In this document: in pieces, positions 13,577-63,967 of the stretch | How positions within the stretch are numbered: the first letter of the stretch is position 1 | How the letters are laid out: every line of letters begins with the position of its first letter | Source of the DNA: an uncultured Patescibacteria group bacterium | Lineage (GTDB): Bacteria; Patescibacteriota; Microgenomatia; UBA10105; UBA927 | Assembly (NCBI GenBank): GCA_937921305.1 | Contig: CAKZSU010000006.1 | Coordinates: 1,089 to 65,088, forward strand | Length of the DNA stretch: 64,000 bases | Direction of reading: 5' to 3' | Translations under genes and position numbers: made by a program | Notes under the pieces: model-generated | What the model was told of the DNA's origin: nothing | Database searches by the model: none | Seen by the model: the letters and a program-made list of their open reading frames with translations, nothing else

Positions 13577-14325
13577 GGTTCACCTTTCAAATATTTCCAA
13601 TAGGCAATTGGAACATGCAATGCAGAAAACAGTGAAAATAAAAATCCATATATTCCATCAATAAATCCTTTCTTTTGAATAAAAAATACAACGAATATTT
13701 TTATGGGCTGAAGAAAAAAATATGAAAAAAATGCTCTTTTTGAAATCTTTTTTCTTCTCAATTCATCAGCAGTCAACGATGTGTATGTATCAGCTTTTCT
13801 CCAATAATCCGCTATGGTTTCATAAGAATAGTGATAAAGATGATGAGTGAGATATCCAACAGAACCATCAACATCTATCTGCTCGTGAACACTTTTGCAT
13901 GGAAATCTTGCTTTTCCTCTTTTCACAAGTCGAATCACATAATCAGGATACACTCCTGTTTTTCTCATCCAATGTCCCCAAAAGTTATTTTTTCTTGGAA
14001 TAAAAAAACCACAATTCGTTGTTGTGTTGATTACTTCTTGAATTTCATTTTTTAATTCTGGAGAAACAACTTCGTCAGCGTCTAATTGCAAAATCCAATC
14101 AGATCGACAAGAGTCTAACGCTTTTTGCTTATTGATATGAAAAATTGGCGGATTGTCCGCATAAATAATTCTTGCGTTAAATCGTTTTGCTATATCCAAT
14201 GTGCCATCGGTGGATCCTCCATCGACAATCACGATTTCATCTGCAATATCAACAATAGAAGATAAGCATCGCTCTAGATATTTTTCTTCATTATACACAG
14301 CTAACGCGATAGAAAGTTTTTTCAT
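13573..14325 (-). CDS. Glycosyltransferase family 2
   Basis: LSIALAVYNEEKYLERCLSSIVDIADEIVIVDGGSTDGTLDIAKRF...LQLDADEVV. It is a paralog of 40808-41719, with the same C-terminal HEH.VVDG block. Confidence 0.75.
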   Translation of the reverse strand: MKKLSIALAVYNEEKYLERCLSSIVDIADEIVIVDGGSTDGTLDIAKRFNARIIYADNPPIFHINKQKALDSCRSDWILQLDADEVVSPELKNEIQEVINTTTNCGFFIPRKNNFWGHWMRKTGVYPDYVIRLVKRGKARFPCKSVHEQIDVDGSVGYLTHHLYHYSYETIADYWRKADTYTSLTADELRRKKISKRAFFSYFFLQPIKIFVVFFIQKKGFIDGIYGFLFSLFSALHVPIAYWKYLKGEP

Positions 14326-30838: not shown

Positions 30839-31738
30839 TTCTCGATCCTTTTTCTTAAACAATCGTTGCGATTCTTTTCTCTTACGAAGGACAACGAATA
30901 GACGCTTCAACGCGTCAAAATATCCGAAAATAAAACTTGTATCTCCTTTTATAGACGATTGGATAAGACGTATATGAAGATAGACTACATGCTCACAGAG
31001 ATAAGAATAATCAGTAATATTTTTCCATATACAAAACAATTGATTTCTATACGAAACTCGCTTGACATGCGAGGATTTCATCCTTGTTTTTATCATTCCT
31101 TCCTCATGTCTATGAATGACCACGCTTCTTGATTCAAAAATAATTCGATATCCGCTCTTTCTTGCTCGATATGAAAGATCAATGTCCTCCCAATAAAACG
31201 GATTAAACAATTCATCCATTCCGCCAAGTTTCATCCAATATGATCGACGAAACGCCCCGCTTCCTCCAGAAACCCACGCGGTATCGGTTTTTTCGACCTC
31301 TCCTCGCTCATGCATAATCATTCCTTTGTGCCAATAAGCAATTCCCCTTCCTCGAAGGATAATCTGATATCCTTCAACGCTCTTATCCATGCATCCTACG
31401 GCAAAAACAGAAGAATCGGAAAAATGAGGAAGCAAGTATTCTAAAAAATGATCTTCTGGTTCAACATCTGAATTCAACAATACAACAATATCTCCTAAAG
31501 CATGAGCAACACCTACATTAACCGTGCTTGAAAATCCATCATGACTTTTCTTTTTTATTAATCGAACATGCGGATAATAGTTTGTAATAAAGTCAACAGA
31601 ATCATCCGTAGAGGCATCGTCAACAACGATAATTTCATGATTTTTTGCCGCTTTTATAACTGCGGGAAGATACTTTTGTAGCAGATTTTTCCCATTCCAA
31701 TTTGGAATAACAATGCTAACAGAGTATTTACAATTCAT
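30821..31738 (-). CDS. Glycosyltransferase family 2
   Basis: YSVSIVIPNWNGKNLLQKYLPAVI...EIIVVDDASTDDSVDF...VLLNSDVEPE. Confidence 0.75.
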   Translation of the reverse strand: MNCKYSVSIVIPNWNGKNLLQKYLPAVIKAAKNHEIIVVDDASTDDSVDFITNYYPHVRLIKKKSHDGFSSTVNVGVAHALGDIVVLLNSDVEPEDHFLEYLLPHFSDSSVFAVGCMDKSVEGYQIILRGRGIAYWHKGMIMHERGEVEKTDTAWVSGGSGAFRRSYWMKLGGMDELFNPFYWEDIDLSYRARKSGYRIIFESRSVVIHRHEEGMIKTRMKSSHVKRVSYRNQLFCIWKNITDYSYLCEHVVYLHIRLIQSSIKGDTSFIFGYFDALKRLFVVLRKRKESQRLFKKKDRELLKRR

Positions 31739-35851: not shown

Positions 35852-36877
35852 TTAAAGAAAAATTCTATCCAATGTTTGATAAAAAATACTTGTATCAAAT
35901 TGTTTTGCCCTATTTATCGTTTTTTTTCTCACTAATGTTGCCTTTTTCTGATCTTTGATTAACGATAGTGTTCTCTCTGTCAATTCCTCTTTTGACTTCC
36001 AAAACATCCCAGAGATTCCGTGTTCCACAATCTCTTTCTGACCACCCGCAGGATAGACAAGAGGAATAGCTCCTGACGCCATCGCTTCAACTGTCGAAAT
36101 GCCAAAATGCTCAACACACTCCGGATGGTTCGATTCATCCTCGCCATATCCAGTCGCATGCCAGTAGACCATTGCTTCTCCATATAAATCTAATAAGGTA
36201 TCTCTTGAGATGTTAATCAACAATTCAATCGGGTATCCGTGAATCATTCGCCGAATTCTTTGTTCTTCATCTTTGTCAGCGTCTAATATCCCACCAGCAA
36301 GAATAAGTTTCCATTCCTTCAATCCATCATCAACCATCCGTTGAAACGCTTGAATCAATATTTCTTGTTTTTTTGCATTCATGCCTTTTGTCAATCTTCC
36401 AACAGAGAGAATAATTTTCTCTTTTTTCTTCTCTTTATAATCGTCTATATGAATTGATGGATATACGACATGGGCGTTCGCAAAAAATGTTTTATCGATG
36501 AATTTCTTCGTGAATTCTGAATTAACAATTATGTCAGCAATTCGCAAACGTTTAAGCAAAGTTATTGGAGAAAAAAGACGCACCCATGGAACAGGAAACT
36601 GAAAAATACAATATGTTTTCTTTGCAAAAGAAAAGGGCAAGCTGCCATCGCTATAAAACAACAAAACATCTAATCCGCGAGAGTCGAATACATCTCTCGT
36701 TTCAAGATGAGACAATGATATACCAAACCGTTCTTCGGCAAGAGATACTTCGCCAGGATTATTCGTAAAGTACAAAACTGAATGATTCTTTTTCAAAAAA
36801 TATGACGCAAAAGTGAACATGTACTGTTCTCCTCCGCCCAATGTATCATGATATGGATTATAGATTCCGACGATCAT
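35852..36877 (-). CDS. Glycosyltransferase family 4
   Basis: ...VEHFGISTVEAMASGAIPLVYPAGGQKEIV... E-x7-E motif. 341 aa. Confidence 0.75.
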   Translation of the reverse strand: MIVGIYNPYHDTLGGGEQYMFTFASYFLKKNHSVLYFTNNPGEVSLAEERFGISLSHLETRDVFDSRGLDVLLFYSDGSLPFSFAKKTYCIFQFPVPWVRLFSPITLLKRLRIADIIVNSEFTKKFIDKTFFANAHVVYPSIHIDDYKEKKKEKIILSVGRLTKGMNAKKQEILIQAFQRMVDDGLKEWKLILAGGILDADKDEEQRIRRMIHGYPIELLINISRDTLLDLYGEAMVYWHATGYGEDESNHPECVEHFGISTVEAMASGAIPLVYPAGGQKEIVEHGISGMFWKSKEELTERTLSLIKDQKKATLVRKKTINRAKQFDTSIFYQTLDRIFL

Positions 36878-39161
36878 AAAAATATCTTCTTAATGACTCA
36901 AATAAAAGCACCACACATGTGAATCCAGAAATCCAAACGCCAATCATAAACAATCGAGGTTGATAATACAAATCGACAATCGATATTCCTTCTGGAATCG
37001 CCACGGCTCTAAACGCGTGATTGGCGCGGAGCACCTTTGACTCTTTTTCATTTACTTTTACTTTCCATCCAGGATCAAATACCTCTGAAAGAAACAGTAT
37101 CCGCGGAGTATCTGTTGTCGCTTTGATTCGGACACTGTTTGGTCGATATGAAATGACTTCAACATTTCCGACTTCTCCTTTTTTCGGCTCGATAGAAGGA
37201 TCTTCTTCCAAAACCACAAGACCTCTCTCAACCCGATTTGCGAGGAATGATAGTATCTTGTTTTTATCTGATAAGATAACATAGTCATGAAACAACGCAA
37301 ATCGAGGAGAAGGAGTTACATCTTTAAGAATTTCATAGTGTTCATCTTCGTATACAGATACATAGTCAGGATATTCCCAATGAGGAAATGTCCATATATG
37401 TCGTCCATCGCTCTTTCTATAAAGAACCCAATTCACGCCAAGAATATCAAACCATGTTTTTGTATAAACGCCGTGCTTATCGATGCGAACGACAGATCGC
37501 TCCAATGGTTCAATAGTTCCTTTTGACGCAGCAGAGATAAACTCTCCATATCGCTTTTGATACATCGCGTCATAACCTTCAATAAAGGGGATATGCGCAT
37601 GCATCGCAAGTTCATTGCCAAATGTTCCGAATGCTCGATCATTTCCGATTTCTTTTTGAAGATATGAAATGAGTGGAATTGAAGGATACACATAGTCTCT
37701 TGGATCAAATGGCATCCACTTGAGAGAAAATCGAAGGAGATCAAACGAAACGCATAGAAGAAAAACAATTATTATTGCTTTTCTTATTCTTCGGAATTTC
37801 CTTCCAAGGATGAGACATCCTACAAATACAATAGACAACACTGTTGGAAGAGTCATATTTCGTTTCACAATTTGCATATACTGTTCTTGAATGTGAAAAA
37901 AGAAAAGAATATATACCCAAGCAATTCCCAAAAAGAATACGATGAAAAGAGAAAAACTTTGTATTCTCAAAGATCCCTTCTTTTGCCAATCTTCTTTCAA
38001 TTGATCAAATCCAAACGATGAAAGAACGATAAGCGAAAAACTAAACAATACAATCATTCTTGTCGCCACACTTGTTGAGATGATAGAAATCTTCATCGCG
38101 TACAATAACGCATTCAACGGCGAAGCAAAAGAGACTAACAAACTCATAATCGCCATCACGAGAAATACGATCTTTCCTTTCTTTTTTGAGAATATAGCTC
38201 CGTATATCGCAAGAAATAAGGGAATGACGCCGATATAACTCGCCCACTCGGCGTATTGACCAAACCAATCATTCCTTGTCACAGGATTTCCATATACATC
38301 AGGAGCAAAAAGCGTAAGAATATAGCTCCACGGAATCGAACCAGTGGTAAAACTTTCTCCTCGATTTGATTGCAGATATGCATGAAGTGTTGTCAACACC
38401 TGCACGCTTGATAGCAACATTCCGAGAAATACAAAAAGGAATAACGCTCCTTTTTTCTTTGTATACCCGAGGATAAATAGCATTAACGCTCCCACCACAT
38501 ACATGCTTATTTGATAATGACCAGAAAGAAATGAAAACGCGATACTCAACGCAATAAGAACGCCATATCTCCAACGAGATGATTCTTCGTACAAAACAAC
38601 ACCAAATAATGCAAGTGGAAACACAACGATCGCCCACCCCAATGTTCCATATGCCATCCAAACTGTCATAAATCCAAAAAACATAAAACTTACGGTTCCA
38701 AGCAACGATGAAATAGTTGACACTTTAATTGCCCGTAAAAATAAAAACATGCAGAATCCCGCGCATAGTGGTTGCAGAAGCACATGAAGACTCCATGCGT
38801 CAATAAATGGAAAAACAAAAAACAGAATATTAATAGGAGAAAACACTGCTGATTGATAATTGCCTGCGTGGGGAGTTCCCGAGAATAGGTACGGATTCCA
38901 CAATGGAACTTCTCCAGATTTCCATGTGTCTATTGTTAGTTTTTTCCACGGAAATATCTGAGTAATAACATCCGGCATCGCGTTATTCTTTACCGGCATG
39001 CCATAATATGCGTTCCACGGAGGGAAAAACGACACAAGATATGTTGATGGAAATGGAACGCTTCCATGAAGAAAATATTGAGAAGAAAAAATAAACCAAA
39101 TAACAACAATAAAACAATATGGCAAAATTTTTACAATAACTGACGATGTTGTTTTTCCCAT
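36858..39161 (-). CDS. YfhO-family membrane glycosyltransferase-like protein
   Basis: 767 aa. ...VPLWNPYLFSGTPHAGNYQSAVFSPINILFFVFPF... The C-terminus has VFDPGWKVKVNEKESKVLRANHAFRAVAIPEGISIVDLYY. Confidence 0.6.
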   Translation of the reverse strand: MGKTTSSVIVKILPYCFIVVIWFIFSSQYFLHGSVPFPSTYLVSFFPPWNAYYGMPVKNNAMPDVITQIFPWKKLTIDTWKSGEVPLWNPYLFSGTPHAGNYQSAVFSPINILFFVFPFIDAWSLHVLLQPLCAGFCMFLFLRAIKVSTISSLLGTVSFMFFGFMTVWMAYGTLGWAIVVFPLALFGVVLYEESSRWRYGVLIALSIAFSFLSGHYQISMYVVGALMLFILGYTKKKGALFLFVFLGMLLSSVQVLTTLHAYLQSNRGESFTTGSIPWSYILTLFAPDVYGNPVTRNDWFGQYAEWASYIGVIPLFLAIYGAIFSKKKGKIVFLVMAIMSLLVSFASPLNALLYAMKISIISTSVATRMIVLFSFSLIVLSSFGFDQLKEDWQKKGSLRIQSFSLFIVFFLGIAWVYILFFFHIQEQYMQIVKRNMTLPTVLSIVFVGCLILGRKFRRIRKAIIIVFLLCVSFDLLRFSLKWMPFDPRDYVYPSIPLISYLQKEIGNDRAFGTFGNELAMHAHIPFIEGYDAMYQKRYGEFISAASKGTIEPLERSVVRIDKHGVYTKTWFDILGVNWVLYRKSDGRHIWTFPHWEYPDYVSVYEDEHYEILKDVTPSPRFALFHDYVILSDKNKILSFLANRVERGLVVLEEDPSIEPKKGEVGNVEVISYRPNSVRIKATTDTPRILFLSEVFDPGWKVKVNEKESKVLRANHAFRAVAIPEGISIVDLYYQPRLFMIGVWISGFTCVVLLFESLRRYFYDRRNL

Positions 39162-43169: not shown

Positions 43170-43905
43170 AGCGACGGAGAAGGCGATTCCATGGACGTTC
43201 TCTCAACATGCGAAGCAATCCTTCCAAATCTCTTTGCGCTGTTTTCATAACTCTCACGGTTGATCCCGGATTGTCGATCCATGTTACCGGCTCTTCATAA
43301 ATACGATACCCCGCTTTTTCCGCGATCAGCAATAATTCCGTATCAAAGAACCATTCATTATCTTGAACAAATGGAAGCACCTCTCGAACAACTTGGCGTG
43401 TGACCGCCTTAAATCCGCATTGCGCGTCGGTGAAATGAACCCAAAAGAACAGTTTAATTAACGCAATATATCCTTTTGATGTTATTGTTCGCAGCATTCC
43501 TCGTTTAAAAACACGGCTTCCTTTCGCGTTTCTTGTGCCAATAGCAAAGTCATACCCGCGGAGCAACGAACGAACGAGCGGAGGAAAATGCTTTAAATCA
43601 GTGGACAAATCAACATCCATATACGCGAGAATATCATCGTCAGACTCCATCCATGCTTTTTTAACTGCCCTTCCTCTTCCTTTTTCATCAAGATGATGAT
43701 AGCGAACATGCGGCATTGTTTTACTTAATCGTTTTGCAATCGCTAGGGTGCTATCTGTTGACGCGTTGTCAACTATTGCGATGTTCCAAGAAAAATCTGA
43801 CAACGCGGTTTTCAAGTACTCAGAGATCGTCTTGACACTCTGCTCAAGCTCCGCTTCTTCATTGTACACCGGGATAGCGATGTTAAGAGACGGTTTTTTT
43901 CCCAT
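43162..43905 (-). CDS. GT2 polyprenyl-phosphate sugar synthase (DPM1-like)
   Basis: LNIAIPVYNEEAELEQSV...NIAIVDNASTDSTLAIAKRL...GRGRAVKKAW...LAYMDVDLSTD. Confidence 0.75.
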   Translation of the reverse strand: MGKKPSLNIAIPVYNEEAELEQSVKTISEYLKTALSDFSWNIAIVDNASTDSTLAIAKRLSKTMPHVRYHHLDEKGRGRAVKKAWMESDDDILAYMDVDLSTDLKHFPPLVRSLLRGYDFAIGTRNAKGSRVFKRGMLRTITSKGYIALIKLFFWVHFTDAQCGFKAVTRQVVREVLPFVQDNEWFFDTELLLIAEKAGYRIYEEPVTWIDNPGSTVRVMKTAQRDLEGLLRMLRERPWNRLLRRYD

Positions 43906-45559
43906 AGGAATACACTAATAATAACACGCTCAAAACGCTTATTATATTTCCTATAAATCGAACAGGTGTATCGATAAATCTCATTTCAATTGTGCTAAAT
44001 CCTTCTGGAATGCGAACAATAGCTCTGCTGTTATCAAGACGAATATATTGCTCTTTGCCATTGACCCAATATCGCCATCCAGGGAAATGCGCGTGCTGAA
44101 GAATTATGTCATGTTGTTTTTGACTCATGATTTCAAATTTTTTATATGTTTCTTTATTGATAGCTTGCTTAAATTGATATACCGTACTCTCCGGAATAGG
44201 AAGTTTTATAATTTCCTCGGCGGATTTCGGTTTTGGGATATCTGGCGGCAAATACTCATCGGAAATTTTTGATGCTCTATATCGAAGATCTTCCTGTGTT
44301 TCAAAACTCGCGGGTGATCGATCATACAGATATTGAGGAACGAAAAATTTTTTGTTTACGAAGATATTTCCAATCATAATCATACAACTTATAAGAAAAA
44401 AACCATATCGATATCGATATCGATGAGGAATCGACAAAACCAAAGAAATTGTTAATAACGATATCCCGAATGCCGTATAAGCAAGAAACCGCCATGGATA
44501 TTGAACATAAGAAAATCCAGGAATTAAGATCCATAAAAATTCAGAAAGACTTGTCATAAAAAAAATCGAAAGCAAAACAACTCCCCAGCCGAATACCCCA
44601 ACAAACACCAACTGATTCTTTCGCTTCCACGAATAAAGCAAAGCAAATCCGCTACTCACCATAATAAAAAACGCCAACTTGCCAAGCATAAATGACAGTC
44701 CATCTTCGCATCCAGAGACAGATCCTCCGTACCCCCATGGGGAATACCAAAATTGACGAAGACATACAAAGTGATCGACAACGTTCGCAGTCGGTCCAAT
44801 TTGCTCTGAAACAGAAATAAATCTCATTTCTACGATCGCTGGAAGCCAGAAAAACGCGGAGAGACCTAATCCGAATAATAAACCAATCTTCAAAATGCCA
44901 AAAGGAAGAACCGATTTCTTTTTTATAACTACAACAATAGCAAAAAATACTAAGAAAAAGAGAAAAAACACTACTGTAGTAAATCCAAGAATCGTGTGAG
45001 ACAAGACAACTCCCGCTACGCCGATTGCTCCAAGATATATCCCTATTCTATATCGTCGCTCAATCAGTGTCGCGTATACCGAACCAAACAAAAACGGAAA
45101 GAACACAAGCGTCCATAATTCTCCAATCGCGCCGCGAACATATAATTGCGTCGCATGATACGGCGCATAAACATACACAATAGCAGCAACTAACGCGATC
45201 ACAATTCCAAAAAAACTGGAATAGATCAACACCATTAGTATGGCTGGAAGCACCATACCGATTACCATCATTATTTTTGTCGCAGCAAGGCCAGAGAAGC
45301 CTAATGCGTAGAAAAAACCGCCGACATAATACGGAAGCGGTCCATAAAAATTAAACAGTGGATATCCATAACCATATCCCAAATCAGAAATCCATCGAAC
45401 AGGAAATTGACCATTGAGAAGAGCTCTTCCCATAGAAACAACTCGCGCAACCTGCGTATCATCATGCATAGGGAAAAATCCATCAGAAAGAATAGGTTGA
45501 ACAACTGGCAAGCATAACACAAAAGACAATAAAACAACAAAAAAATATTTAACGATCAT
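43883..45559 (-). CDS. Family-B GT-C-like membrane protein
   Basis: MHDDTQVARVVSMGRALLNGQFPVRWISDLGYGYGYPLFNFYGPLPYY. The track ORF (to 45862) is over-extended into the upstream gene. An internal start MIVKYFFVVLL at about 45559 lies 5-8 bp from the upstream stop. Confidence 0.55.
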   Translation of the reverse strand: MIVKYFFVVLLSFVLCLPVVQPILSDGFFPMHDDTQVARVVSMGRALLNGQFPVRWISDLGYGYGYPLFNFYGPLPYYVGGFFYALGFSGLAATKIMMVIGMVLPAILMVLIYSSFFGIVIALVAAIVYVYAPYHATQLYVRGAIGELWTLVFFPFLFGSVYATLIERRYRIGIYLGAIGVAGVVLSHTILGFTTVVFFLFFLVFFAIVVVIKKKSVLPFGILKIGLLFGLGLSAFFWLPAIVEMRFISVSEQIGPTANVVDHFVCLRQFWYSPWGYGGSVSGCEDGLSFMLGKLAFFIMVSSGFALLYSWKRKNQLVFVGVFGWGVVLLSIFFMTSLSEFLWILIPGFSYVQYPWRFLAYTAFGISLLTISLVLSIPHRYRYRYGFFLISCMIMIGNIFVNKKFFVPQYLYDRSPASFETQEDLRYRASKISDEYLPPDIPKPKSAEEIIKLPIPESTVYQFKQAINKETYKKFEIMSQKQHDIILQHAHFPGWRYWVNGKEQYIRLDNSRAIVRIPEGFSTIEMRFIDTPVRFIGNIISVLSVLLLVYSYGKKTVS

Positions 45560-47078
45560 ATCGTTTCGGTATGAAAAATTTATAACCAAGCAATCCGCCG
45601 TAACACAGCATAAAACAGAGAGACGCGCTATTCGCGACAAATCGCGGAATCGTCTCTCGAAACTCGGCAAATATTTCGTGTTCTCCTTTGAGAACAAAAA
45701 AACGAATAAGACCATTTGGATTATCATAGGAGATCTTTTGCGGCAAACCATTGACCAACACACCCCATCCCGGATAATAAATCGAATTAATCTGAAGCAC
45801 GCTATCTTCTTCCGCAATAACGCGAGCTTTGATCGTTTGAGTAGTGGCAACATCAAACACAATCTTCCCTCGTCCTTGCTGAAAAATCATCCGTTTATAG
45901 GATCGCTCTGAGGGAATTTCTCGCACCCATCGCGGCATATATTCTCCTGAAACAGTTGTAGTTGACTCGTTTGTCGCGTAAAATCCTTCTGGATGATTCA
46001 TATACTCAATAAGGCGAAAAAACGAAAGCGCATGAGCGTAAAAAGAAATAATAACCAAAACAATATATAACATCCGAAACCTGTCTCTCAATACATCAAC
46101 TACCAACGCGATGAAATAAGCTGACAAAAAAATTGAAAGAGAAAACATTCGAAATGGAAATTGAAACAATCGAGCAAATGATTCAATTGACCAGACCCAT
46201 TGGGAAAAAGATGTTAATAAAAACAATAGAAAAATATTACTAAAAAAATAAAAAGATATGTACGATTTTTTTAGGAAAAAGATCAATAGCGATGATAATA
46301 GACCAATCGTTGGGAATAGATACGAGAATCGATTATCAAGAAAAAAACTTTGAGGATTTGAAATTATTTTTGAATCAAATATAACGTATCGTTTCTCATA
46401 TAGCGCAGGAAACCAAAAAAATGTCGCCATACCAATACCTAAACAAAATAACAAAATTCCCTTAATATTTCTTCGCAAAGCAAGAAGCAAAAGAAAAAAA
46501 CAACAGAATATCAATGCCACAGAATTATGACTAATAACAAGGAAAAACACCGCAGGAGCGATCAGCATATACCGTTGTCTTTCAATCGCGTACAACACTA
46601 TCGCCGCGAAAGAAAACGCAAGCACCTCGCCGACAGATCCCCGCTCGTAAAGATCAAATAAAAGATAAGGAGAAACAAGATAACTAACGCTGCCAATAAA
46701 CGCTGAAAATGGAGAAACAAATACCCGAAGCCAAAGATAAACAAAGATTCCAGAAATAATAACTGATCCCCCCATAATGATTTTCACAGCGTCAAGAAAA
46801 GAAAAACCAATACCATGAAGCATCGATCCGATGTACAAATATCCTGGATATAAAAAATTTGAAACAGGATATCCATAGCTATTGTTCAACCTTCCTAAAA
46901 ACCGAACAGGAAATTGTCCTTCTCGAAGACTTTGATAAAACGCCGAAAGACGAATAATCATCCAATCGCCATCGTGTGTCACGGGAAATCCCGAATGAAA
47001 CAATGGAATAAGAGAAGCACATGCGGCAAATATGACCGCAACAAGGAACACGATGTGTGTACGATTATGAATATTCAT
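45549..47078 (-). CDS. Family-B GT-C-like membrane protein
   Basis: THDGDWMIIRLSAFYQSLREGQFPVRFLGRLNNSYGYPVSNFLYPGYLY. The C-terminus has YYPGWGVLVNGLPQKISYDNPNGLIRFFVLKGEHEIFAEFRET. Confidence 0.55.
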   Translation of the reverse strand: MNIHNRTHIVFLVAVIFAACASLIPLFHSGFPVTHDGDWMIIRLSAFYQSLREGQFPVRFLGRLNNSYGYPVSNFLYPGYLYIGSMLHGIGFSFLDAVKIIMGGSVIISGIFVYLWLRVFVSPFSAFIGSVSYLVSPYLLFDLYERGSVGEVLAFSFAAIVLYAIERQRYMLIAPAVFFLVISHNSVALIFCCFFLLLLALRRNIKGILLFCLGIGMATFFWFPALYEKRYVIFDSKIISNPQSFFLDNRFSYLFPTIGLLSSLLIFFLKKSYISFYFFSNIFLLFLLTSFSQWVWSIESFARLFQFPFRMFSLSIFLSAYFIALVVDVLRDRFRMLYIVLVIISFYAHALSFFRLIEYMNHPEGFYATNESTTTVSGEYMPRWVREIPSERSYKRMIFQQGRGKIVFDVATTQTIKARVIAEEDSVLQINSIYYPGWGVLVNGLPQKISYDNPNGLIRFFVLKGEHEIFAEFRETIPRFVANSASLCFMLCYGGLLGYKFFIPKRYDR

Positions 47079-49909: not shown

Positions 49910-50662
49910 TTATTTATACAACCCTCGCCATGCGTTAAGCCGAATTGCAATAATATCCATAATCCCCTGAAGAGAGTCTTTGATGGGATTGACTCGCCTT
50001 GTCTCAACATAATGCCATTCTACCGGAACTTCCTTTATCTTGTATCCTTTTCTCTTTGCAACAAACAGAATTTCAATATCAAAACCAGCCGTAACCATCG
50101 CGCCGGAGACTTCGTGCCCTTTCCCATATCGCTTTAATGAACGGAATACATCATACGCGACTTCGCGACGAAACGCCTTAAATCCACACTGCGTATCAAT
50201 AATCCCGTGCAATCCAAGAATAATGCTTCGCAACGCCATAAAGCCTCGAGCCATAATCTTTCGTGACAATGGCGCTCCATGACGCTCACCACTTCTTGAG
50301 CCGATAACAACATCGTACCCTTTACCGAAAAATGGAAGCAATTTCCGAATCTCATGAAGCGGCGTTGCCTGATCAAGATCGGAAAATAATACGATATTCC
50401 CTTTTGCCGCAAGCATACCAGTAATAACTGTTGCCGCTTTTCCTTGATGAGGATTAAATATCGCCTGAAATCCTTTGTTTTGATCAACAAAATCGGCAAG
50501 CAACCGTTTTGTCATATCTGTCGATCCATCGTCAACAATAATCACTTCCCATGAAAAGAAAACATGCTGAAGATATCGAACAACCTTATCCAACGTACCT
50601 AATCGTATATTTGTTTCTTCATTGTACGCTGGAATAACAATAGAGATATCACATGGTTTCAT
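49910..50662 (-). CDS. GT2 polyprenyl-phosphate sugar synthase (DPM1-like)
   Basis: ISIVIPAYNEETNI...VIIVDDGSTDMTKRLL...GKAATVITGM...VLFSDLDQATP. Confidence 0.75.
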   Translation of the reverse strand: MKPCDISIVIPAYNEETNIRLGTLDKVVRYLQHVFFSWEVIIVDDGSTDMTKRLLADFVDQNKGFQAIFNPHQGKAATVITGMLAAKGNIVLFSDLDQATPLHEIRKLLPFFGKGYDVVIGSRSGERHGAPLSRKIMARGFMALRSIILGLHGIIDTQCGFKAFRREVAYDVFRSLKRYGKGHEVSGAMVTAGFDIEILFVAKRKGYKIKEVPVEWHYVETRRVNPIKDSLQGIMDIIAIRLNAWRGLYK

Positions 50663-52257
50663 TCTTCTCCTTTGTAATGAACGAGCTTAAATAATTTTAC
50701 TGGAAAGACATCCTTTTCTTCGACAATTTCCGCTCTTCCAAACCCAGCAACCTCCCAGCTAGCATGCCCTAATGGCTGACATGATGGATTTTCACAGATA
50801 ACAATAAGCTGATCGGTCACAGTTGTTCGTTCTGGATCTACGGACGGTTGTTGAATAACAATCGGCGATCTTCCCCATATTTCAAAGAAATATCGATATG
50901 CATGATCGGAGTTTGTCGCCGTGATTAATGCAAAATTAAATGGTTTTCCTTCCGAGAGATCCAACGCCGCCTTCGCGATTCGTTTTGTTTGCTCCAATTG
51001 ATTATTCGGAGGGTACATAAATGGTCTTCCCTGCCAATTATAGTAAAACAGTCCGCCCCATACGAACAAGCCAATCGCAATTCCCGCTTTTGTTTTCATA
51101 AGTTGCCAAAGAACAATGCCCACCGCAATAAACGGAAACGCAAAAAAAATGCCGAAGTAATAATCATAAATACTTCGCTGATAAAATCCAAACGACAAAA
51201 TAGACCATAAAAACCATCCAGATAATAACATTGCTCCCAACCATTGCTTACGCGTCAGTATATTTTGCGAAGATTTCCGAATAAAACGAATACTCATATA
51301 GACCACAACACCAATTGAAATATAGAGCGTCGTACGTATCAATATGACTAAAAGATTGATATACCAATCAGAATATCCATTCCACACTTCATATTGAGGC
51401 ATGCGAAACAACAACCGTCCATAAGAACGAAACGTAACATCATGAACAATCTCGATGAATTTTCCTGGAACAAACACTGTTTCATTTCCTCCCAGAAAAA
51501 AATTGATAAGCGCTGTTGTATTGGGAAACGAATGGCGAAATTCAAACGCCACAAACGGGGAAAGCATAAGAAAAAATCCACAACACCACACCGCAATATG
51601 CTTAAAAAGCGACCTTATTGAAGAAACAATAAGAATCAATAAAGAAAACGCGATGAGTATTGAATATAAATAATGAAATTGGATACCCATCCCAGACACC
51701 ACCCCAATAAAAAAAACAAGGATTGTCTTCTTCTGAACAATGAATCTCCATAAAAGGTAGAGAAGAAGCAAGGAAAAAAAAGGCACAAGGTTAGGATTCC
51801 ACGATGATCGAGCATACGCGATCACCAAGGGAGAAACAGCATATAAACTCGCTCCAACAAGCCCGACAACAGGATGAAACATTGTGCTTCCCACATGAAA
51901 GACTAAATAAATTGTCGCAATTCCGAATAACGCGACCATAATCGCGGGACCAACTGGATCAAGATTCCACAACCAAAGAAACGGCGCCATGAAGTAGTAA
52001 TACAATGGTCCAAGAAAGAATCCGCCGACCGACGCTGTTGGCCCAAGAAAGACCATGTCTCTATCAACGATCATCCGTTTCACAATTAATACATCTCTTC
52101 CTTCATCGCCTAAAAACGTTAAATACTCATGAATACGATGTAATCGAAGATATGCGCCAAGGAGCATAATTATTGTTATGCAAGAAATCAGAAGATGCTT
52201 TAAAGAACTACAATTCATGAGTGTAGTATACCTTACACCAATCTCTTTTTTCTCCAA
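50659..52257 (-). CDS. GT-C-like polytopic membrane protein with a DE motif (ArnT/PMT-like, orphan)
   Basis: 532 aa. ...HEYLTFLGDEGRDVLIVKRMIVDRDMVFLGPTASVGGFFLGPLYYY... after TM1, then about 11 TM helices. Confidence 0.5.
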   Translation of the reverse strand: MEKKEIGVRYTTLMNCSSLKHLLISCITIIMLLGAYLRLHRIHEYLTFLGDEGRDVLIVKRMIVDRDMVFLGPTASVGGFFLGPLYYYFMAPFLWLWNLDPVGPAIMVALFGIATIYLVFHVGSTMFHPVVGLVGASLYAVSPLVIAYARSSWNPNLVPFFSLLLLYLLWRFIVQKKTILVFFIGVVSGMGIQFHYLYSILIAFSLLILIVSSIRSLFKHIAVWCCGFFLMLSPFVAFEFRHSFPNTTALINFFLGGNETVFVPGKFIEIVHDVTFRSYGRLLFRMPQYEVWNGYSDWYINLLVILIRTTLYISIGVVVYMSIRFIRKSSQNILTRKQWLGAMLLSGWFLWSILSFGFYQRSIYDYYFGIFFAFPFIAVGIVLWQLMKTKAGIAIGLFVWGGLFYYNWQGRPFMYPPNNQLEQTKRIAKAALDLSEGKPFNFALITATNSDHAYRYFFEIWGRSPIVIQQPSVDPERTTVTDQLIVICENPSCQPLGHASWEVAGFGRAEIVEEKDVFPVKLFKLVHYKGEE

Positions 52258-58307: not shown

Positions 58308-58580
58308 TTAAATAAAGAGGACAGTATATAATATCGCCAATCCAATCCCGGCAATCAACACGTATTCTATCATAACCTTGACATATAAATCACCTTCAAT
58401 ATAGTGATAGACAATCCCCCACAAAATATACGACATCGCGGCGATAAATCCTACAAGGAACTGGAGATCTGGTTTCCCCTGAAAAAGAGAAATTGCAAGA
58501 ATCGTAAATCCAAAAATAATACAAAGAACAAGTGGATGAAGATATGTATGATGAATAATGTTTTTATTATGATGCTTCAT
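58308..58580 (-). CDS. Small 3-TM membrane protein, hypothetical
   Basis: The likely start is MKHHNKNIIHHTY..., where an ATGA-type overlap with the stop of the CAP gene is expected. It has three hydrophobic helices. The track ORF extends to 58694 inside the upstream gene. Confidence 0.35.
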   Translation of the reverse strand: MKHHNKNIIHHTYLHPLVLCIIFGFTILAISLFQGKPDLQFLVGFIAAMSYILWGIVYHYIEGDLYVKVMIEYVLIAGIGLAILYTVLFI

Positions 58581-59503
58581 AAGACGCTTCCATGAATAAT
58601 CATATTGCTTGCGATCAAGATTGCCAAGAAAAATAATCCATGGGCGAAGGTCGATCCAACAGCTCGAACTTTCTTCTTCTTTGCCATAATCCATATATCC
58701 AACAACAACACGCCAAGAAACATGCCTCCGAACATCATCGTGATATCTCGACGCACTTTTACAACATCAACCTGTGGCATAGAGATAACGGATGGAAACG
58801 GAATCTCATTGATAGACGCCGCAACTTGCGGAACTTCAACAGAATTTGTCGGCGATCCAGCATCAGCAATCATCGATTCAGATGCAGTAGATTCTTCTGT
58901 CGGCTCATCTACCGCTTGACTTACCGGACGAGCGGACGGACGAGCGCCAAACATTTGCACCACAAGTGTTGTTTCTTCTCCTTGAAGTTTTCCATTCACA
59001 ACAGCGAATCCAACATCTTTGTATCCCTTTTTAAGGATATTATCCCGATGACTCGAAGACGCCATCCATGCGTTGACAACGCCGGTGCTATCCTGAAAAT
59101 TCTTCGCCAAATTTTCACCTGCGACGGTATATTTATACCCAGAAGCAACAATAAAATCCCACGGCGTCTTTCCATCAGGAGACACATGTGCCCAGTAATT
59201 TTTTGCAAACATATCTTCTGCTTTTTTCGCAGCCGCTTGAGACAATTGCTGATCAAGACGAAGGGGAGACAATCCAGCCTCTATCCGTTTTTCATTAGTT
59301 TTTCTTAATAATTCCTGGACTTGAATATTTGTCGCGTATCCCAACACATCAGGAAACCATTGTGTCATCATCCGAAGACCAATATTTATGACAAGAAATG
59401 CCAATAAATACAGCATCAAGACATCGATGTGCAACGCCTTTGCCCTATGATTATTGCCGTGATGAGGGATAAACAAATGCTTTACCAACGAAAGAAGACT
59501 CAT
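58577..59503 (-). CDS. CAP/SCP (PR-1-like) domain protein with an N-terminal TM anchor and a C-terminal TM segment
   Basis: ...NEKRIEAGLSPLRLDQQLSQAAAKKAEDMFAKNYWAHVSPDGKTPWDFIVASGYKYTVAGENLAKNFQDSTGVVNAWMASSSHRDNILKKGYKDVGFAV... matches the CAP domain motifs (HxxNxxR, GENL, HRxNIL). There are hydrophobic segments near both termini. Confidence 0.65.
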   Translation of the reverse strand: MSLLSLVKHLFIPHHGNNHRAKALHIDVLMLYLLAFLVINIGLRMMTQWFPDVLGYATNIQVQELLRKTNEKRIEAGLSPLRLDQQLSQAAAKKAEDMFAKNYWAHVSPDGKTPWDFIVASGYKYTVAGENLAKNFQDSTGVVNAWMASSSHRDNILKKGYKDVGFAVVNGKLQGEETTLVVQMFGARPSARPVSQAVDEPTEESTASESMIADAGSPTNSVEVPQVAASINEIPFPSVISMPQVDVVKVRRDITMMFGGMFLGVLLLDIWIMAKKKKVRAVGSTFAHGLFFLAILIASNMIIHGSVL

Positions 59504-59553: not shown

Positions 59554-60123
59554 TTATTGTTGAGGAATAGCGTACACAACACGACGTTTTTGATCAAATG
59601 CGCCTTCGCAGGTATACAATGTTAATCGATTATCCTCAGAAAAGATAGCCTCCACATCATGTTTTGATACCGTTTTTGATTCAATTACTGTATACAAATG
59701 ACTTCTCTCTCCTTGATGCAATTCAATTGCATCGCCGGGGACAAGTTTATGGAGATCGCCCCACAAATTTTTCCAGTTATGCGCATACAAAATCACATTC
59801 CCTTCGCCGGGAACCGCGGATGTAGAAAGCCACGCAACGCTAGTATCAAACAGTTGCCACGCGTTATCTTTAACAATTGCTGCTTGAATAACATGCTGTT
59901 TATTAATTTTTGGAATATAGATGCTTGTTGGCGGTTGTTTTGTTGTGCTTTTCCTCTCGTGCTGATCCACAAGATCGACTACGAATGAAGCGTTCATAGG
60001 CACATAAAACTGTTGATCGCGAATTGTCGTTGCAACCCGATAAGAAGTATAAAAAAGAACTGCTGGAACCAGAAAGACAAAAAGACGAATAATCTTATCG
60101 CGAAAATTTATGATATATGCCAT
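59554..60123 (-). CDS. Sortase-family transpeptidase
   Basis: 189 aa with an N-terminal TM anchor, ...VILYAHNW... (catalytic His region) and ...NRLTLYTCEG... (the TLxTC catalytic-Cys motif). Confidence 0.7.
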   Translation of the reverse strand: MAYIINFRDKIIRLFVFLVPAVLFYTSYRVATTIRDQQFYVPMNASFVVDLVDQHERKSTTKQPPTSIYIPKINKQHVIQAAIVKDNAWQLFDTSVAWLSTSAVPGEGNVILYAHNWKNLWGDLHKLVPGDAIELHQGERSHLYTVIESKTVSKHDVEAIFSEDNRLTLYTCEGAFDQKRRVVYAIPQQ

Positions 60124-61219
60124 AGAAGATCGTTCCCATTAATAAAGACATCGCTATGGCACTGTATTGGTCTAATCGACCCGTCGCGCCCAAAACATCT
60201 GTAGAAACACCCAACACCTGTCCTCCGCCAATCGAAGTAGACACTCCTAACACTTGACCGCCATTTCCAACAGATCGCTCGTCAGAAGGATCTCCCGGCA
60301 TGCAATCATTGATTCCGCGAACTTGAAAATAATATGTCGCGTTGGGATCCAAACCTCCTATGACAAACGATGTGATATTTCCCGTAGAAGGAACGCCAAA
60401 TTGATAACTCCCAGAAGATAATCCATAGGATATCGCATATGTTGTTACCGGAGCAACTTCTGTCCACGATAAACTAACCGTCGTTGGACTCGTTCGAGTA
60501 ATCGACGTAATCGATGGCTTTGCTGGTTTTCCCGCAGGACACTGTTGCGCTGTTGGATTCGTATTCGATCCGCCACCATTTGATCCTGAAGAAGATTGTG
60601 ATTGAGATGTCGGCATCGGTGTTGGCAACGAAGATGGAGACATCAGCGGTGTTGGCGTTATTGTTGGCGTCGGTCCGCCAGTATTACCCTCATTACATGG
60701 TTCGGCGTTAACCGCTCTCACGCCATCAACATCATATCCATCGGCAATGTCATCGGTAAAAATCGTCGGATCGCTGATATCTGTTATTCTGACATAGTTT
60801 ACACATGAGAATCCGCTTGGCATATCGACTTGTCCATCTTGGACAACTGTTCCAGCGAGAACCCAATTGACACCATCTTGAGATACTTCTATTCTTGCAC
60901 GCTCCTCTGGATAATTTGGCCAAGTAGATTCAACAACAATCACCCCATCACGAACGCCATTATCAAAACGAAGTACGATATTCCCGCCAAACCCAAGGGA
61001 AAAGAAATATCCATCGACATTACTATTTTCCGCCGGACCAAGCGCGGAAGAAGGATTGCTTCGTATTGCCGGCACTGGATTGCCATTCTTCATTAATCCT
61101 TGTGAATAGGAGATAACCTCGTCAGCCCATGGACCCAAGCCATCGGGTGTCGCAGCGAAAACAATAAAAAAAGACAACGAAACAAAAAAGAATAGTGAAA
61201 GAAAAAAGAGTTTTTTCAT
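60095..61219 (-). CDS. Secreted surface protein. Signal peptide, jelly-roll/lectin-like N-domain, Pro/Thr/Ser-rich linker, fibronectin type III domain, and a C-terminal sorting-signal-like tail.
   Basis: The likely start is MKKLFFLSLFFFVSLSFFIVFAA (signal peptide). The linker is TPTITPTPLMSPSSLPTPMPTSQSQSSSGSNGGGSN. The FN3-like region is PSITSITRTSPTTVSLSWTEV...YYFQVRGIND. The C-terminus is ...GGQVLGVSTSIGGGQVLGVSTDVLGATG-RLDQYSAIAMSLLMGTIFYGIY-HKFSR (motif, hydrophobic stretch, basic tail). Confidence 0.6.
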   Translation of the reverse strand: MKKLFFLSLFFFVSLSFFIVFAATPDGLGPWADEVISYSQGLMKNGNPVPAIRSNPSSALGPAENSNVDGYFFSLGFGGNIVLRFDNGVRDGVIVVESTWPNYPEERARIEVSQDGVNWVLAGTVVQDGQVDMPSGFSCVNYVRITDISDPTIFTDDIADGYDVDGVRAVNAEPCNEGNTGGPTPTITPTPLMSPSSLPTPMPTSQSQSSSGSNGGGSNTNPTAQQCPAGKPAKPSITSITRTSPTTVSLSWTEVAPVTTYAISYGLSSGSYQFGVPSTGNITSFVIGGLDPNATYYFQVRGINDCMPGDPSDERSVGNGGQVLGVSTSIGGGQVLGVSTDVLGATGRLDQYSAIAMSLLMGTIFYGIYHKFSR

Positions 61220-61270
61220 CCTATATTTTTTTAATAGGGGTATTATATAGAGAAGAATTATTTTTGTCAA

Positions 61271-61461: not shown

Positions 61462-62775
61462 CTATGTATGTTCTATAGGTGCATAGAAAAGAAAAAAGAA
61501 GAAAGGGAAACGCGTTTTTAAAAATTTCATGACCTTAAATATAAATGTTTCATGCAAGTAAGGAAGGGTAATCATATTCTTCCCTTCAGACAACTGAATA
61601 TCAGTCGTATGAACATATGGACTCGAAACTGTCGCTACTTCTCCGTTATACATCAAGGGCAATCGAAACAACCCAGTTGCATCTGTGACGATATTTCTAT
61701 ATCGCGTCTCAATAAATATCTCACTAAGAGGTTTGCCAAGTTCATCTCGAACGATTCCAAACGCTTGTTTCGGTCGATAAAATTCCTCAAGAACCGATAT
61801 TCCTTTTTTTCTTTTCCCATCGATTGTTATAAGCTCTGTTGAACCCCCAGTGCTTACCCAATAATTTACCCCAATAACATCTAGATGTTCGACAAATACT
61901 TCAAGAAATTCTCGGAGAAGACTTGCTTGAGCTTCTTCTGAAAGTTTTCCATGAATATCAGGAATTGGCAACCCAAATTCTCCTATCATGATTTTCCCCT
62001 TGCTTCGGTCTGCGTACCGTTTTAAATCTTGTCTCATTTTTTCTGGCGTTTTTACATAATGATCAATCGTGACAACCCCATCAAGAGCGCTCGTCATCTC
62101 CTCGTCCATGATCAGAAACGCGACATCGCCATTCATAGAGTATAGATTTGCTTGGACGCGTTTATTTATTCGGTCAAACGATTCTTTCGCGATCGCATAT
62201 TCCTCCAGTAAGAATCGTTTAAATCCCTCGACATCTCCCGTCATTCGCGGATCGCCTGGACCGCCATTTTCACATTCTGGACAAGAAGTAAAAAGATCGC
62301 CATCTTCAAATAATAGAGAATTATTCAAAATAAATTCTTTCAATTGTTTCTTATGTTCTTCTCGTGTCATTTTTTTGTATCCAAACCATTCTTCCCATCC
62401 AGAGAAATTACCTCGAAACCAAATATTTAATTTTTCCGCTCTTGCATAGTGAACCCATCGTTTCATAAATGGAATAAATTCATTATCATAGGGTGTCGCA
62501 ATAGCGATATGCGTCGCGCCAATATCTTTCGCCAATAAAACTTGACGCTTGATAATTTCATCAAACGACTTGTCATTTCGCTTCTCTTGCGCGACATCTC
62601 GAGAAAATTTCATCGTATCAATAGAGCGAATCTTCCACCACCCAGTCAATGACTCACCATCTAATCCTTTTGCATGAATACCATCAGGAAAAAAAGCGAA
62701 CCCCATGAGGCATATCACAATGATGAAGCGGCGAAAGAAACAAAAAAGAAAAAAGACAATTCGTTGTCTATTCAT
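61462..62775 (-). CDS. Membrane-anchored glycoside hydrolase, clan GH-A-like TIM barrel (family unresolved)
   Basis: 437 aa. N-terminal TM (FFLFCFFRRFIIVICLMGFAFF), ...GATHIAIATPYDNE... and ...KIMIGEFGLPIP... resemble the NE acid/base and (I/V)xEFG nucleophile motifs of clan-A GHs. Confidence 0.45.
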   Translation of the reverse strand: MNRQRIVFFLFCFFRRFIIVICLMGFAFFPDGIHAKGLDGESLTGWWKIRSIDTMKFSRDVAQEKRNDKSFDEIIKRQVLLAKDIGATHIAIATPYDNEFIPFMKRWVHYARAEKLNIWFRGNFSGWEEWFGYKKMTREEHKKQLKEFILNNSLLFEDGDLFTSCPECENGGPGDPRMTGDVEGFKRFLLEEYAIAKESFDRINKRVQANLYSMNGDVAFLIMDEEMTSALDGVVTIDHYVKTPEKMRQDLKRYADRSKGKIMIGEFGLPIPDIHGKLSEEAQASLLREFLEVFVEHLDVIGVNYWVSTGGSTELITIDGKRKKGISVLEEFYRPKQAFGIVRDELGKPLSEIFIETRYRNIVTDATGLFRLPLMYNGEVATVSSPYVHTTDIQLSEGKNMITLPYLHETFIFKVMKFLKTRFPFFFFLFYAPIEHT

Positions 62776-63967
62776 TGCTTTGATTATATCGTTCGCGAAT
62801 AATTTTTCCTATCAACGCGCTTCCTGGAAATTTATATGCTGTTTTCCAATCAGACTTTCCCCAATGACCCATAAAATTATCCTCATTCGCCATCTGCCAT
62901 ACGCCGTGCGCACCATACGCGTGCCCGCACGCGCCATAACGAAGAGAAATGTCAATCGCTTCCTTCTGATGCTTTTCGCCAAAATTACTTCGTATCCCTT
63001 CATACCATGGTTCAAGATTAATGATTGGTACGCCTTCGCGCTGCGCTTCCCGCAACGCGGATATCATAAACAATCTTCCATCTTCGCTATGCCCTGACTG
63101 AATACTATCGATATCAAGCCATGAAGGATAATGAAATAATACAAACGCTCGCATCCTCTTATGCGGATGGACCATGAGTATTCTACCGTAAGGATCATGA
63201 TCCTTAATCCATTGCCCCACGCGACTCCATTGGGCTATACGTTTTCTAAGCAAAAAAGAAGAGAAGAGATCTTTCCATCGAGACATATGCCAAAATATAT
63301 CTACTTCTCCTGCCAAACAAAACATCACAGGATATGACGCATATCTTGCTATAATTTCTTTCCACAAACGAATTACCCTTCGTACCCCAATCACATCTAT
63401 ATGATGACCCCATCCGCCAAATATGCACGGCACCATTCCATACTCAATAATCATTTGAATCCTGTTGTCAACTTCATCAAAATAGGAAGGATTGATCGCA
63501 AACGTTTTTGTAAATGGATGACCGCCATCGTTTTCTGCCTCGTGAGAGAAAAAGGGAATTTCAGGAGGAACGCCAACGATGCATTGAACAGCTGTAAACC
63601 CTTTCTTCTTTCTATCTTTTAATAAAGTTTTAAGATCGATTCGAGACGCTCGATTCGTCATGCCATACCACCATGTATCAGCAAGATAGAAAAATGGCGT
63701 GTTATCATCGTGGATAAGATGTCTTCCTGATACTTTTATTGGTCCATGAAAAAACAACTTGTTCTTCCCTTTATATGGAACAACACGATATGTTTTTCCA
63801 TTTGATAATCGAATAATTCCTACCTCTGAAGAAGAAAATCGGACACACCATGCGCGATTACCCTTTTGAAATGGCATAGCGAAAATTATCTTCCCTGATG
63901 GAAGGATCACCGCAAGGGGATTTTTTGATGCTTCTTCAATCGTTTGATACCGAGTTATTGTTTCCAC
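62768..63967 (-). CDS. DUF4038/GH140-like glycoside hydrolase
   Basis: 399 aa. ...DNTPFFYLADTWWYGMTNRAS...KKGFTAVQCIVGVPPE... resembles the N-terminal 'ffwLGDTaW' signature of the DUF4038 (GH140) TIM-barrel family. No signal peptide. Confidence 0.45.
   Translation of the reverse strand: METITRYQTIEEASKNPLAVILPSGKIIFAMPFQKGNRAWCVRFSSSEVGIIRLSNGKTYRVVPYKGKNKLFFHGPIKVSGRHLIHDDNTPFFYLADTWWYGMTNRASRIDLKTLLKDRKKKGFTAVQCIVGVPPEIPFFSHEAENDGGHPFTKTFAINPSYFDEVDNRIQMIIEYGMVPCIFGGWGHHIDVIGVRRVIRLWKEIIARYASYPVMFCLAGEVDIFWHMSRWKDLFSSFLLRKRIAQWSRVGQWIKDHDPYGRILMVHPHKRMRAFVLFHYPSWLDIDSIQSGHSEDGRLFMISALREAQREGVPIINLEPWYEGIRSNFGEKHQKEAIDISLRYGACGHAYGAHGVWQMANEDNFMGHWGKSDWKTAYKFPGSALIGKIIRERYNQSNE

Follow-up and report, generated by a model that had tools for sequence, protein, structure and literature searches.

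Organization of the substrate and sortase locus

We analyzed a 64-kb stretch of DNA from an uncultured Patescibacteria group bacterium (hereafter, the window), and in it a minus-strand gene pair that encodes a putative surface protein (the substrate) and a predicted dedicated sortase, whose start overlaps the substrate gene (Table 1). The substrate ends in a tail made up of two GGQVLGVST units, the pentapeptide LGATG, a hydrophobic segment, and a basic terminus. We conclude that this tail is probably a sortase-dependent surface sorting signal belonging to an extended type widespread among Microgenomates and other bacteria of the candidate phyla radiation (CPR), a reading to which we assign a probability of about 0.75. 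The motif, its conservation throughout a large protein family, and its gene linkage with sortases in both directions were all observed.

The mechanical open reading frame (ORF) of the substrate gene spans 60095..61270 (-) and has 391 codons from a TTG start. This TTG at 61270 is the -35 hexamer of the promoter-like site listed in Table 1, which implies that the gene has 374 codons instead of 391. The true start is likely the ATG at 61219, which lies 22 nt downstream of the -10 hexamer; the substrate is also 374 aa long in the NCBI/ENA gene calls, and its orthologues are 350-375 aa. The structural model of the substrate contains a helix at residues 3-14, in the signal-peptide region, and another at residues 349-373, covering the terminal membrane segment. 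The N-terminal domain is modeled as a beta-sandwich that appears weakly discoidin-like. Residues 178-207 of the following linker have predicted local distance difference test (pLDDT) values < 50, and the fibronectin type III (fn3) region shows strands at residues 237-317 (pLDDT > 90). The units and LGATG also fall below a pLDDT of 50 and are predicted to be unstructured, which fits the expectation for a linear motif.

Translation confirmed exactly the C-terminal peptide that had been quoted in a sequence-only reading of this DNA, including its perfect 9-residue tandem GGQVLGVST. That reading had also described an approximately 27-nt direct repeat in the DNA, and this part did not stand. The two copies (GGCGGTCAAGTGTTAGGAGTGTCTACT and GGAGGACAGGTGTTGGGTGTTTCTACA) are identical at only 20 of 27 bases, and a repeat finder run at the DNA level did not report the unit pair in the window, because its synonymous sites are too diverged. 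All 7 differences are third-position and synonymous, with none non-synonymous, which implies that the peptide repeat is old and selected and is not a recent duplication. In the QVLGVST core (7 codons), there are 5 synonymous and 0 non-synonymous differences. Compared with QVLGVST, DVLGATG is recognizable as a further, degenerate copy of the unit, the third in the tail, and 27 residues follow LGATG. A profile of 11 tails of sortase-adjacent genes from other genomes, from which the window was left out, matched the window ORF with 50.2 bits (E = 7.7e-15 among 712 six-frame ORFs), where the runner-up had E = 2.2. Thus, chance does not account for the window tail. In NCBIfam and Pfam scans, no model covered this tail.

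Table 1. Positions of the features discussed in the text. Coordinates refer to the window unless another locus is named.
Feature	Position (strand)	Remarks
Substrate gene	60095..61219 (-)	374 aa, counted from Met18 of the mechanical ORF
Promoter-like site TTGACA-17 nt-TATAAT	61242..61270 (-)	Precedes the substrate gene; 12 of 12 positions fit the sigma-70 consensus; consensus match only
Signal peptide MKKLFFLSLFFFVSLSFFIVFA, then ATPDG	61154..61219 (-)	Read from sequence; predicted cleavage site
N-terminal beta-sandwich passenger domain (predicted)	60710..61132 (-)	Model residues 30-170, pLDDT > 92
Pro/Thr/Ser-rich linker TPTITPTPLMSPSSLPTPMPTSQSQSSSGS	60512..60688 (-)	Model residues 178-236, low confidence
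Fibronectin type III domain	60269..60511 (-)	Pfam PF00041, 37.9 bits, E = 2.1e-09
Substrate C-terminus ...VGNGGQVLGVSTSIGGGQVLGVSTDVLGATGRLDQYSAIAMSLLMGTIFYGIYHKFSR	Ends at 60095 (-)	Translation of 60095..61270
Unit 1, GGQVLGVST	60236..60262 (-)	aa 337-345
Unit 2, GGQVLGVST	60200..60226 (-)	aa 349-357
DV + LGATG, predicted sortase pentapeptide	60179..60199 (-); LGATG 60179-60193	LGATG, aa 360-364
Predicted scissile bond Thr363/Gly364	Within LGATG	
Tail stretch predicted as sortase substrate, GGQVLGVSTDVLGATGRLD; also given as SVGNGGQVLGVSTSIGGGQVLGVSTDVLGATGRLDQ		
Hydrophobic membrane segment YSAIAMSLLMGTIFYGIY	60113..60166 (-)	18 aa, read from sequence
Basic cytoplasmic tail HKFSR	60098..60112 (-)	Stop codon 60095-60097
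Dedicated sortase (predicted)	59554..60123 (-)	189 aa; start overlaps the substrate gene by 29 nt
Catalytic triad of the sortase	His115 59779-59781, Cys172 59608-59610, Arg180 59584-59586 (-)	
Sortase residue 90	59854-59856	Follows invariant Trp89
CAP/YkwD-like membrane protein	58577..59503 (-)	Pfam CAP, 70.1 bits; adjoins the sortase gene
Small membrane protein	58308..58580 (-)	Probably ~90 aa from Met39 (predicted start); mechanical ORF to 58694
Protein without family match	61462-62775 (-)	437 aa; just upstream of the substrate gene
Apiosidase-like glycoside hydrolase	62768-63967 (-)	PF13204, E = 1.4e-54; upstream of the substrate gene
Large membrane proteins (examples)	14322-15998, 23651-25864, 31728-33989, 36858-39161, 43883-45862, 50659-52257	
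Locus L005	6384-7626 and 8899-10393	Two substrate/sortase pairs in tandem
Locus L009	4899-6180 and 6490-7795	Two substrate/sortase pairs in tandem
Locus L046	5001-8845	[FL]P[ND]TG-tailed gene, 309-aa protein, two larger, different sortases
Locus L048, mini-ORF	5001-5222	73 aa; units, LPxTG, membrane segment
Locus L052, mini-ORF	2989-3198	65-69 aa; units, LPxTG, membrane segment

A family of conserved C-terminal tails

An exhaustive profile search of 1.84 billion representative proteins returned 668 matches (protein clusters) at E ≤ 1e-3 and 116 at E ≤ 1e-10. All matches were at the extreme C-terminus, in proteins of 65-520 aa. The family consensus is (G-Q-V-L-G-A-S-T) x1-3, [M/L]-[A/G/P]-x-T-G, a membrane segment, and a basic tail. 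Position statistics were obtained from an alignment of 159 tails. At P4, Met (89 tails) and Leu (56) together account for 91%, followed by Tyr (8) and Phe (5), and P3 is Ala in 138 tails (87%), Gly in 16 (10%), and Pro in 4 (2.5%). Thr is present at P1 in 149 tails (94%) and Gly at P1' in 158 (99%). The spacing between this Thr-Gly pair and the membrane segment is fixed, and a median of 31 residues lies C-terminal of the pentapeptide. In a separate alignment of 12 sortase-adjacent tails, one Gly and the pentapeptide Leu and Thr were invariant, and the pentapeptide Ala and final Gly were nearly so.

LGATG lies in the x-x-x-T-G column of the 159-tail alignment, which agrees with the proposal in the sequence-only reading that the tail is a tripartite sortase signal and more than a plain membrane anchor. 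The same column also holds LAATG, MAGTG, LPETG, LPATG, and LPVTG, of which the LPxTG forms are rare (4 of 159); one family member, P0138 (LPATG), passes the curated LPXTG-anchor model TIGR01167 (18.1 bits; cutoff 15.9). Other tails with Gly at P3 read LGSTG, LGETG, LGDTG, and LGYTG. Moreover, all 11 closest orthologues of the substrate (48-100% identity) carry [DE]VLGATG, which implies that Gly at P3 is a clade-conserved variant and no accident, and the more distant orthologues carry LAATG. LGATG had been proposed as a cleavage-type motif that would define the specificity of the adjacent sortase and had been set apart from LAxTG. The first part of this proposal agrees with the alignment, but the motif is a clade variant of [L/M]-[A>G>P]-x-T-G that does not define a unique specificity, and its LAATG counterparts in the more distant orthologues make it LAxTG-like.

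The unit consensus is G-Q-V-L-G-A-S-T, with Ser-Thr conserved at the unit end, and conservation of the units equals or exceeds that of positions P4-P2 of the pentapeptide. In 77% of tails the last unit runs straight into the pentapeptide, and in 13% two residues intervene, whereas successive units are separated by 2 to 6 aa. This difference between near-fixed and variable spacing favors a model in which the pentapeptide and the last unit are recognized together. Tails contain 1-3 unit copies, with two copies in 90%, a figure that is biased because the profile was built from two-unit tails. Comparison of unit copies within single proteins (18 tails x 7 codons, 126 codon pairs) gave 62 synonymous and 32 non-synonymous codon differences, and the pattern [VI]LG[AVT][ST]T, searched in 565,000 six-frame residues from the window and 52 loci, occurred 43 times, each time ≤ 70 aa from an ORF end. 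We conclude that the GGQVLGVST duplication is a family-wide element under purifying selection and not a local event.

The passengers that carry the tail are unrelated: some combine fn3 with a beta-sandwich, some contain a TSP1 domain, and some have no known domain. P0154 and the window protein have the tail alone in common. Related genomes contain 2-3 such tails within 9-20 kb (L004, L005, L009). Literature text searches (unit and motif strings, and sortase signals in CPR) yielded no description, and the signal type was found in no curated model and no searchable paper. The distinctive, unexplained element of the signal is the GQVLGAST repeat and not the Gly at P3.

Linkage of tail-bearing genes and sortase genes

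Loci were collected as relatives of the window sortase, taking one genome per species plus metagenomes and requiring readable upstream DNA. A tail-bearing gene was found directly upstream of 29 of 32 distinct CPR-type sortase genes (≥ 33% identity), often overlapping the sortase gene. In the upstream tails, one or two (G)QVLG[AVT]ST units precede L[AG]xTG, after which come a hydrophobic segment and charged terminal residues. Chloroflexota and Firmicutes sortases at ≤ 30% identity had no tail-bearing neighbor. Named sortase homologues are annotated as Patescibacteria or Candidatus Gottesmanbacteria, and titled genome loci as Woesebacteria, Gottesmanbacteria, Curtissbacteria, Doudnabacteria, and the "Patescibacteria group".

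The linkage was also tested in reverse with five proteins picked by their tail alone. A sortase gene lies immediately downstream of four of them: P0154 (no known domain, MAKTG), P0129 (73 aa, LPETG), P0248 (TSP1 domain, LAATG), and P0144 (LASTG, 410-aa ORF). For P0146, the contig ends 273 nt (91 codons) into an overlapping downstream gene. P0144 had been called as a 47-aa "mini-substrate", which turned out to be a gene-calling artifact; the true ORF of 410 aa includes a signal peptide.

Sortase subclades track tail subtypes. Clade I, which includes the window sortase, is associated with "ST-x(1-3)-L[AG]xTG" tails, and a second clade with "VLG-LA[AFS]TG" tails, whose last unit and motif are fused. 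In the tandem pairs of L005 and L009, one substrate ends in "VLG-LAFTG" beside a clade II sortase and the other in "ST-DT-LAATG" beside a clade I sortase. The match between tail subtypes and sortase clades, together with the unrelated passengers, implies that the tail behaves as an exchangeable sorting module fitted to its enzyme. The mini-ORFs in L048 and L052 were verified: they contain two VLG units and LPETG or LPATG, without a signal peptide or passenger, and one immediately precedes a sortase gene, whereas the other is oriented divergently from one.

Two further arrangements were noted. The CPR proteins P0319-P0346 share the N-terminal domain of the window substrate and end in 2-3 tandem [FL]P[ND]TG motifs, after which the membrane segment follows. 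The L046 locus, which contains such a gene, looks like a pilus-type cluster; the one L046 sortase that was scanned had class F as its best class (101.9 bits, below cutoff). Separately, P0329 (470 aa) has fn3 and Sortase Pfam domains in one called protein with a sortase-like end, and is either a natural substrate-sortase fusion or an assembly frameshift.

The adjoining sortase

The window sortase matches Pfam PF04203 with 69.2 bits (cutoff 26.6), and its His115, Cys172 (in TLYTCEG), and Arg180 are invariant in 120 homologues. Its structural model (pLDDT 89.4) has an N-terminal membrane helix at residues 3-38 and a stranded catalytic domain at residues 67-187. Structure-based class assignment, which the sequence-only reading had proposed, established the sortase fold and did not separate classes A, C, D, and E. 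Foldseek probability was 1.0 between the model and > 100 solved sortases. The top match was SrtE of Thermobifida fusca (class E; E = 3.9e-10, 24% identity), class C (5.9e-10) and class A (7.8e-10) were equivalent to it, and class D was also within a twofold E-value. When the sortase family profile was compared with solved sequences, class A ranked first. The best NCBIfam class model was class E NF033747, at 37 bits compared to a cutoff of 160, and all other NCBIfam sortase class models were far below their cutoffs. Six other tail-linked sortases were below all class cutoffs, and their best class varied among C, D, and F. The earlier suggestion that the sortase might be of a CPR type therefore agrees with its CPR lineage and its position below every curated class threshold.

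Class E enzymes are marked by a conserved beta3/beta4-loop Tyr, which forms a hydrogen bond to the P3 amide (PMC5148588). Tyr128 of T. fusca SrtE, which was located by comparison of the wild-type and Y128A chains, falls opposite Thr94 of the window sortase, at a point where the alignment is of low confidence. Trp89 and Trp98 are invariant in the CPR sortase family. No column of the sortase alignment fully separates enzymes with LGATG-type partners from those with LAATG-type partners. Residue 90 does so best, being Gln or Glu in 8 of 9 LGATG-paired sortases and Asp in 11 of 12 LAATG-paired sortases; sortases and substrates were paired here through contigs of equal length, and the signal is confounded by phylogeny. 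This residue is a possible determinant of P3.

Gene neighborhood

The substrate and sortase genes belong to a conserved cassette of substrate, sortase, CAP-domain protein, and small membrane protein that lies beside dTDP-sugar genes. The CAP gene is directly downstream of the sortase gene in L002, L003, L008, L033, and L045, and about 1 kb downstream in L001. The small membrane protein follows the CAP gene, with phmmer matches in L001, L002, L003, L008, L033, and L045, and it matches DUF5656 weakly. The P0154 locus repeats the gene order of the window: substrate, sortase, CAP-domain protein, small membrane protein, and sugar-nucleotide genes.

Elsewhere in the window, at about 7500-52300, there are about 20 large membrane proteins (500-770 aa), and those scanned match YfhO, PTPS_related, STT3 N-terminal, or PMT_2, all extracytoplasmic glycosyltransferases of the GT-C type. 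Many of the proteins end in a conserved "YFPGW..V.VNG" region and a membrane segment. For a small genome, an array of such density is unusual.

The N-terminal beta-sandwich domain of the substrate recurs in proteins of about 612 aa from other bacteria of another phylum that carry a type IX secretion system (T9SS) tail (PF18962). These T9SS-tailed carriers include P0343, P0351, P0355, P0359, and others, and some also have a discoidin domain (PF00754). The same passenger domain is therefore served by a different sorting system in another phylum.

Proposed mechanism and alternative interpretations

We propose that the substrate is exported by way of its N-terminal signal peptide (Sec) and that its hydrophobic C-terminal segment, together with HKFSR, would then keep it in the membrane. 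The signal would be recognized by the small, membrane-anchored, co-translated sortase (His115-Cys172-Arg180) encoded by the overlapping downstream gene. LGATG would be cut between Thr363 and Gly364, and the protein would be transferred to an amine acceptor, most probably a peptidoglycan precursor. The anchored product would thus display a beta-sandwich domain, a Pro/Thr linker, an fn3 domain, and a stalk containing both GQVLGVST units. That the tail is cut, where it is cut, what the protein is joined to, and what the units do are all predictions from sequence.

For the GQVLGAST units, which extend from P5 to ~P25, we favor the interpretation that sortases of this lineage use them as a second, linear element for recognition or docking, although we place it somewhat short of even odds. 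We favor it because of the fixed position of the units by the pentapeptide, their conserved V-L-G, which is not a glycan acceptor, and their predicted lack of structure. More tentative still is the idea that CPR bacteria have a sortase class or classes of their own, in which recognition reaches ~10-25 residues upstream of the pentapeptide and the units are required docking elements. If this idea is correct, required docking units would allow a relaxed P3 (Ala, Gly, Pro) and P4 (Met, Leu) and strict one-enzyme/one-substrate pairing, and the mini-ORFs would be substrates that give ~30-aa wall-anchored peptides, or sortase regulators.

Several points weigh against a sortase signal of this extended type. 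The 64-kb window contains a single such tail, and that tail was unmatched by curated anchor models, including TIGR01167, even at E ≤ 10. As far as we found, Gly at P3 is without precedent in the literature. A recognition role for the units draws on their spacing and conservation alone, and the unit copy-number statistics carry the bias of a two-unit search profile. Finally, the L048 and L052 mini-ORFs hint at a separate function that the units may serve in the anchored product.

This last point leads to an alternative in which LGATG is the sortase site and the units are not read by the sortase, but instead serve the mature anchored protein, as sites of O-glycosylation on Ser/Thr by the many GT-C glycosyltransferases of the neighborhood or as a stalk that is embedded in the wall and binds a wall polymer. 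In the mini-ORFs (65-73 aa), which lack a signal peptide and passenger, the units would be the sole cargo left after cleavage. A glycan-acceptor role would also be consistent with the Ser-Thr conserved at each unit end, with the window array of YfhO, PTPS_related, STT3-like, and PMT_2 membrane glycosyltransferases, and with the glycosyltransferase family 2 (GT2) genes that flank the pairs in L045, L048, and L052. However, the glycosyltransferase linkage is loose synteny only, and the near-fixed placement of the last unit beside the pentapeptide and the conserved V-L-G are a better fit to a protein-recognition motif. We know of no glycosylation sequon of the GQVLGAST form. On balance, we regard this alternative as rather unlikely.

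The tail could instead be a plain C-terminal membrane anchor, with LGATG and the adjoining sortase coincidental, as the sequence-only reading had allowed. The failure of curated LPXTG-anchor models to match the window tail and the non-canonical Gly at P3 would be expected of such an anchor. Yet Thr-Gly is 94-99% conserved at a set distance from the membrane segment among the 159 tails, the sortase linkage holds in both directions, and true LPxTG variants occupy the same alignment column, so that we give a plain anchor little credence. Slightly less probable still is a sortase that cuts within the GQVLGAST units, in which case LGATG would be one of several sites or a degenerate copy. By analogy, this could be suggested by DVLGATG as a diverged copy of QVLGVST, by the CPR proteins that share the passenger domain of the substrate and carry 2-3 tandem FPNTG/LPNTG motifs beside two larger sortases, and by conservation of the units at least equal to that of P4-P2. 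But the units end in Ser-Thr plus a variable residue (S, D, G, or M), whereas Thr-Gly is, as is well established, invariant in all characterized sortase motifs (PMC5148588), and only the last motif retains T-G. Last, the perfection of the peptide repeat over 9 residues might suggest a recent slippage duplication without function. A recent slippage origin is ruled out by the synonymous divergence of the copies (7 of 27 bases, all synonymous) and by the family-wide occurrence of the arrangement, with two units in hundreds of divergent proteins, and a functionless repeat is left with a negligible probability.

Sortases are reported to be near-ubiquitous in Microgenomates (PMC6744442). Curated models miss the substrates of Microgenomates sortases, and a tail profile would flag hundreds of surface proteins. 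These proteins come from uncultivated, mostly host-dependent bacteria, in which they would be the likeliest mediators of host attachment. If the sortase does read a long linear signal, then sortase specificity would be extended past five residues, and an enzyme with such extended recognition could give orthogonal, higher-affinity protein-ligation tools.

Comparison with known sortase systems

The window signal resembles the canonical LPXTG signal of class A (TIGR01167/Gram_pos_anchor) in its tripartite form and accompanying signal peptide, and LPxTG variants do occur in the family (4 of 159 tails). It differs in that Pro at P3 is exceptional (Gly in the window), a conserved repeat lies upstream, and TIGR01167 misses the window tail. 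The L048 and L052 mini-ORFs, which contain little beyond the signal, are similar in this respect to the "LAXTG motif-containing small protein" NF058583; however, the mini-ORFs were unmatched by this model, and an orthologue tail gave only a weak match (E = 0.15, 11.8 bits compared to a cutoff of 65). The placement of a sortase gene beside one cognate substrate with a non-canonical motif, in an adjacency conserved across genomes, is shared with the class GN "marine" sortase (TIGR03784, LPQTG target) and with SrtB/NPQTN. Yet the window sortase scores 22.6 bits with TIGR03784 (cutoff 158.25), the motif, passengers, and taxonomy differ from those of class GN, and, unlike in dedicated single-target pairs, the CPR tail occurs on many unrelated passengers.

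Class E systems include SrtE1/SrtE2 of Streptomyces coelicolor, which act with chaplins, and SrtE of T. fusca, with LAXTG signals (PMC5148588). The CPR system resembles them in its small P3 residue in place of Pro (Ala in 87% of the family, LAATG in most orthologues), T-G scissile pair, membrane segment, and basic tail, and in a sortase with an N-terminal membrane anchor whose top Foldseek match is SrtE and whose best NCBIfam class model is class E. By contrast, that model match reaches 37 bits compared to a cutoff of 160, other classes are equivalent by structure, and class A is first by profile. P4 in the CPR family is often Met, P3 in the window is Gly, the lineage is CPR and not Actinobacteria, and the overlapping sortase and substrate genes are paired one-to-one. 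To our knowledge, the upstream GQVLGAST units have no counterpart in class E systems. Together, these comparisons suggest that the window sortase probably works as an LAxTG-type enzyme but belongs to a separate CPR lineage, and we do not file it as class E.

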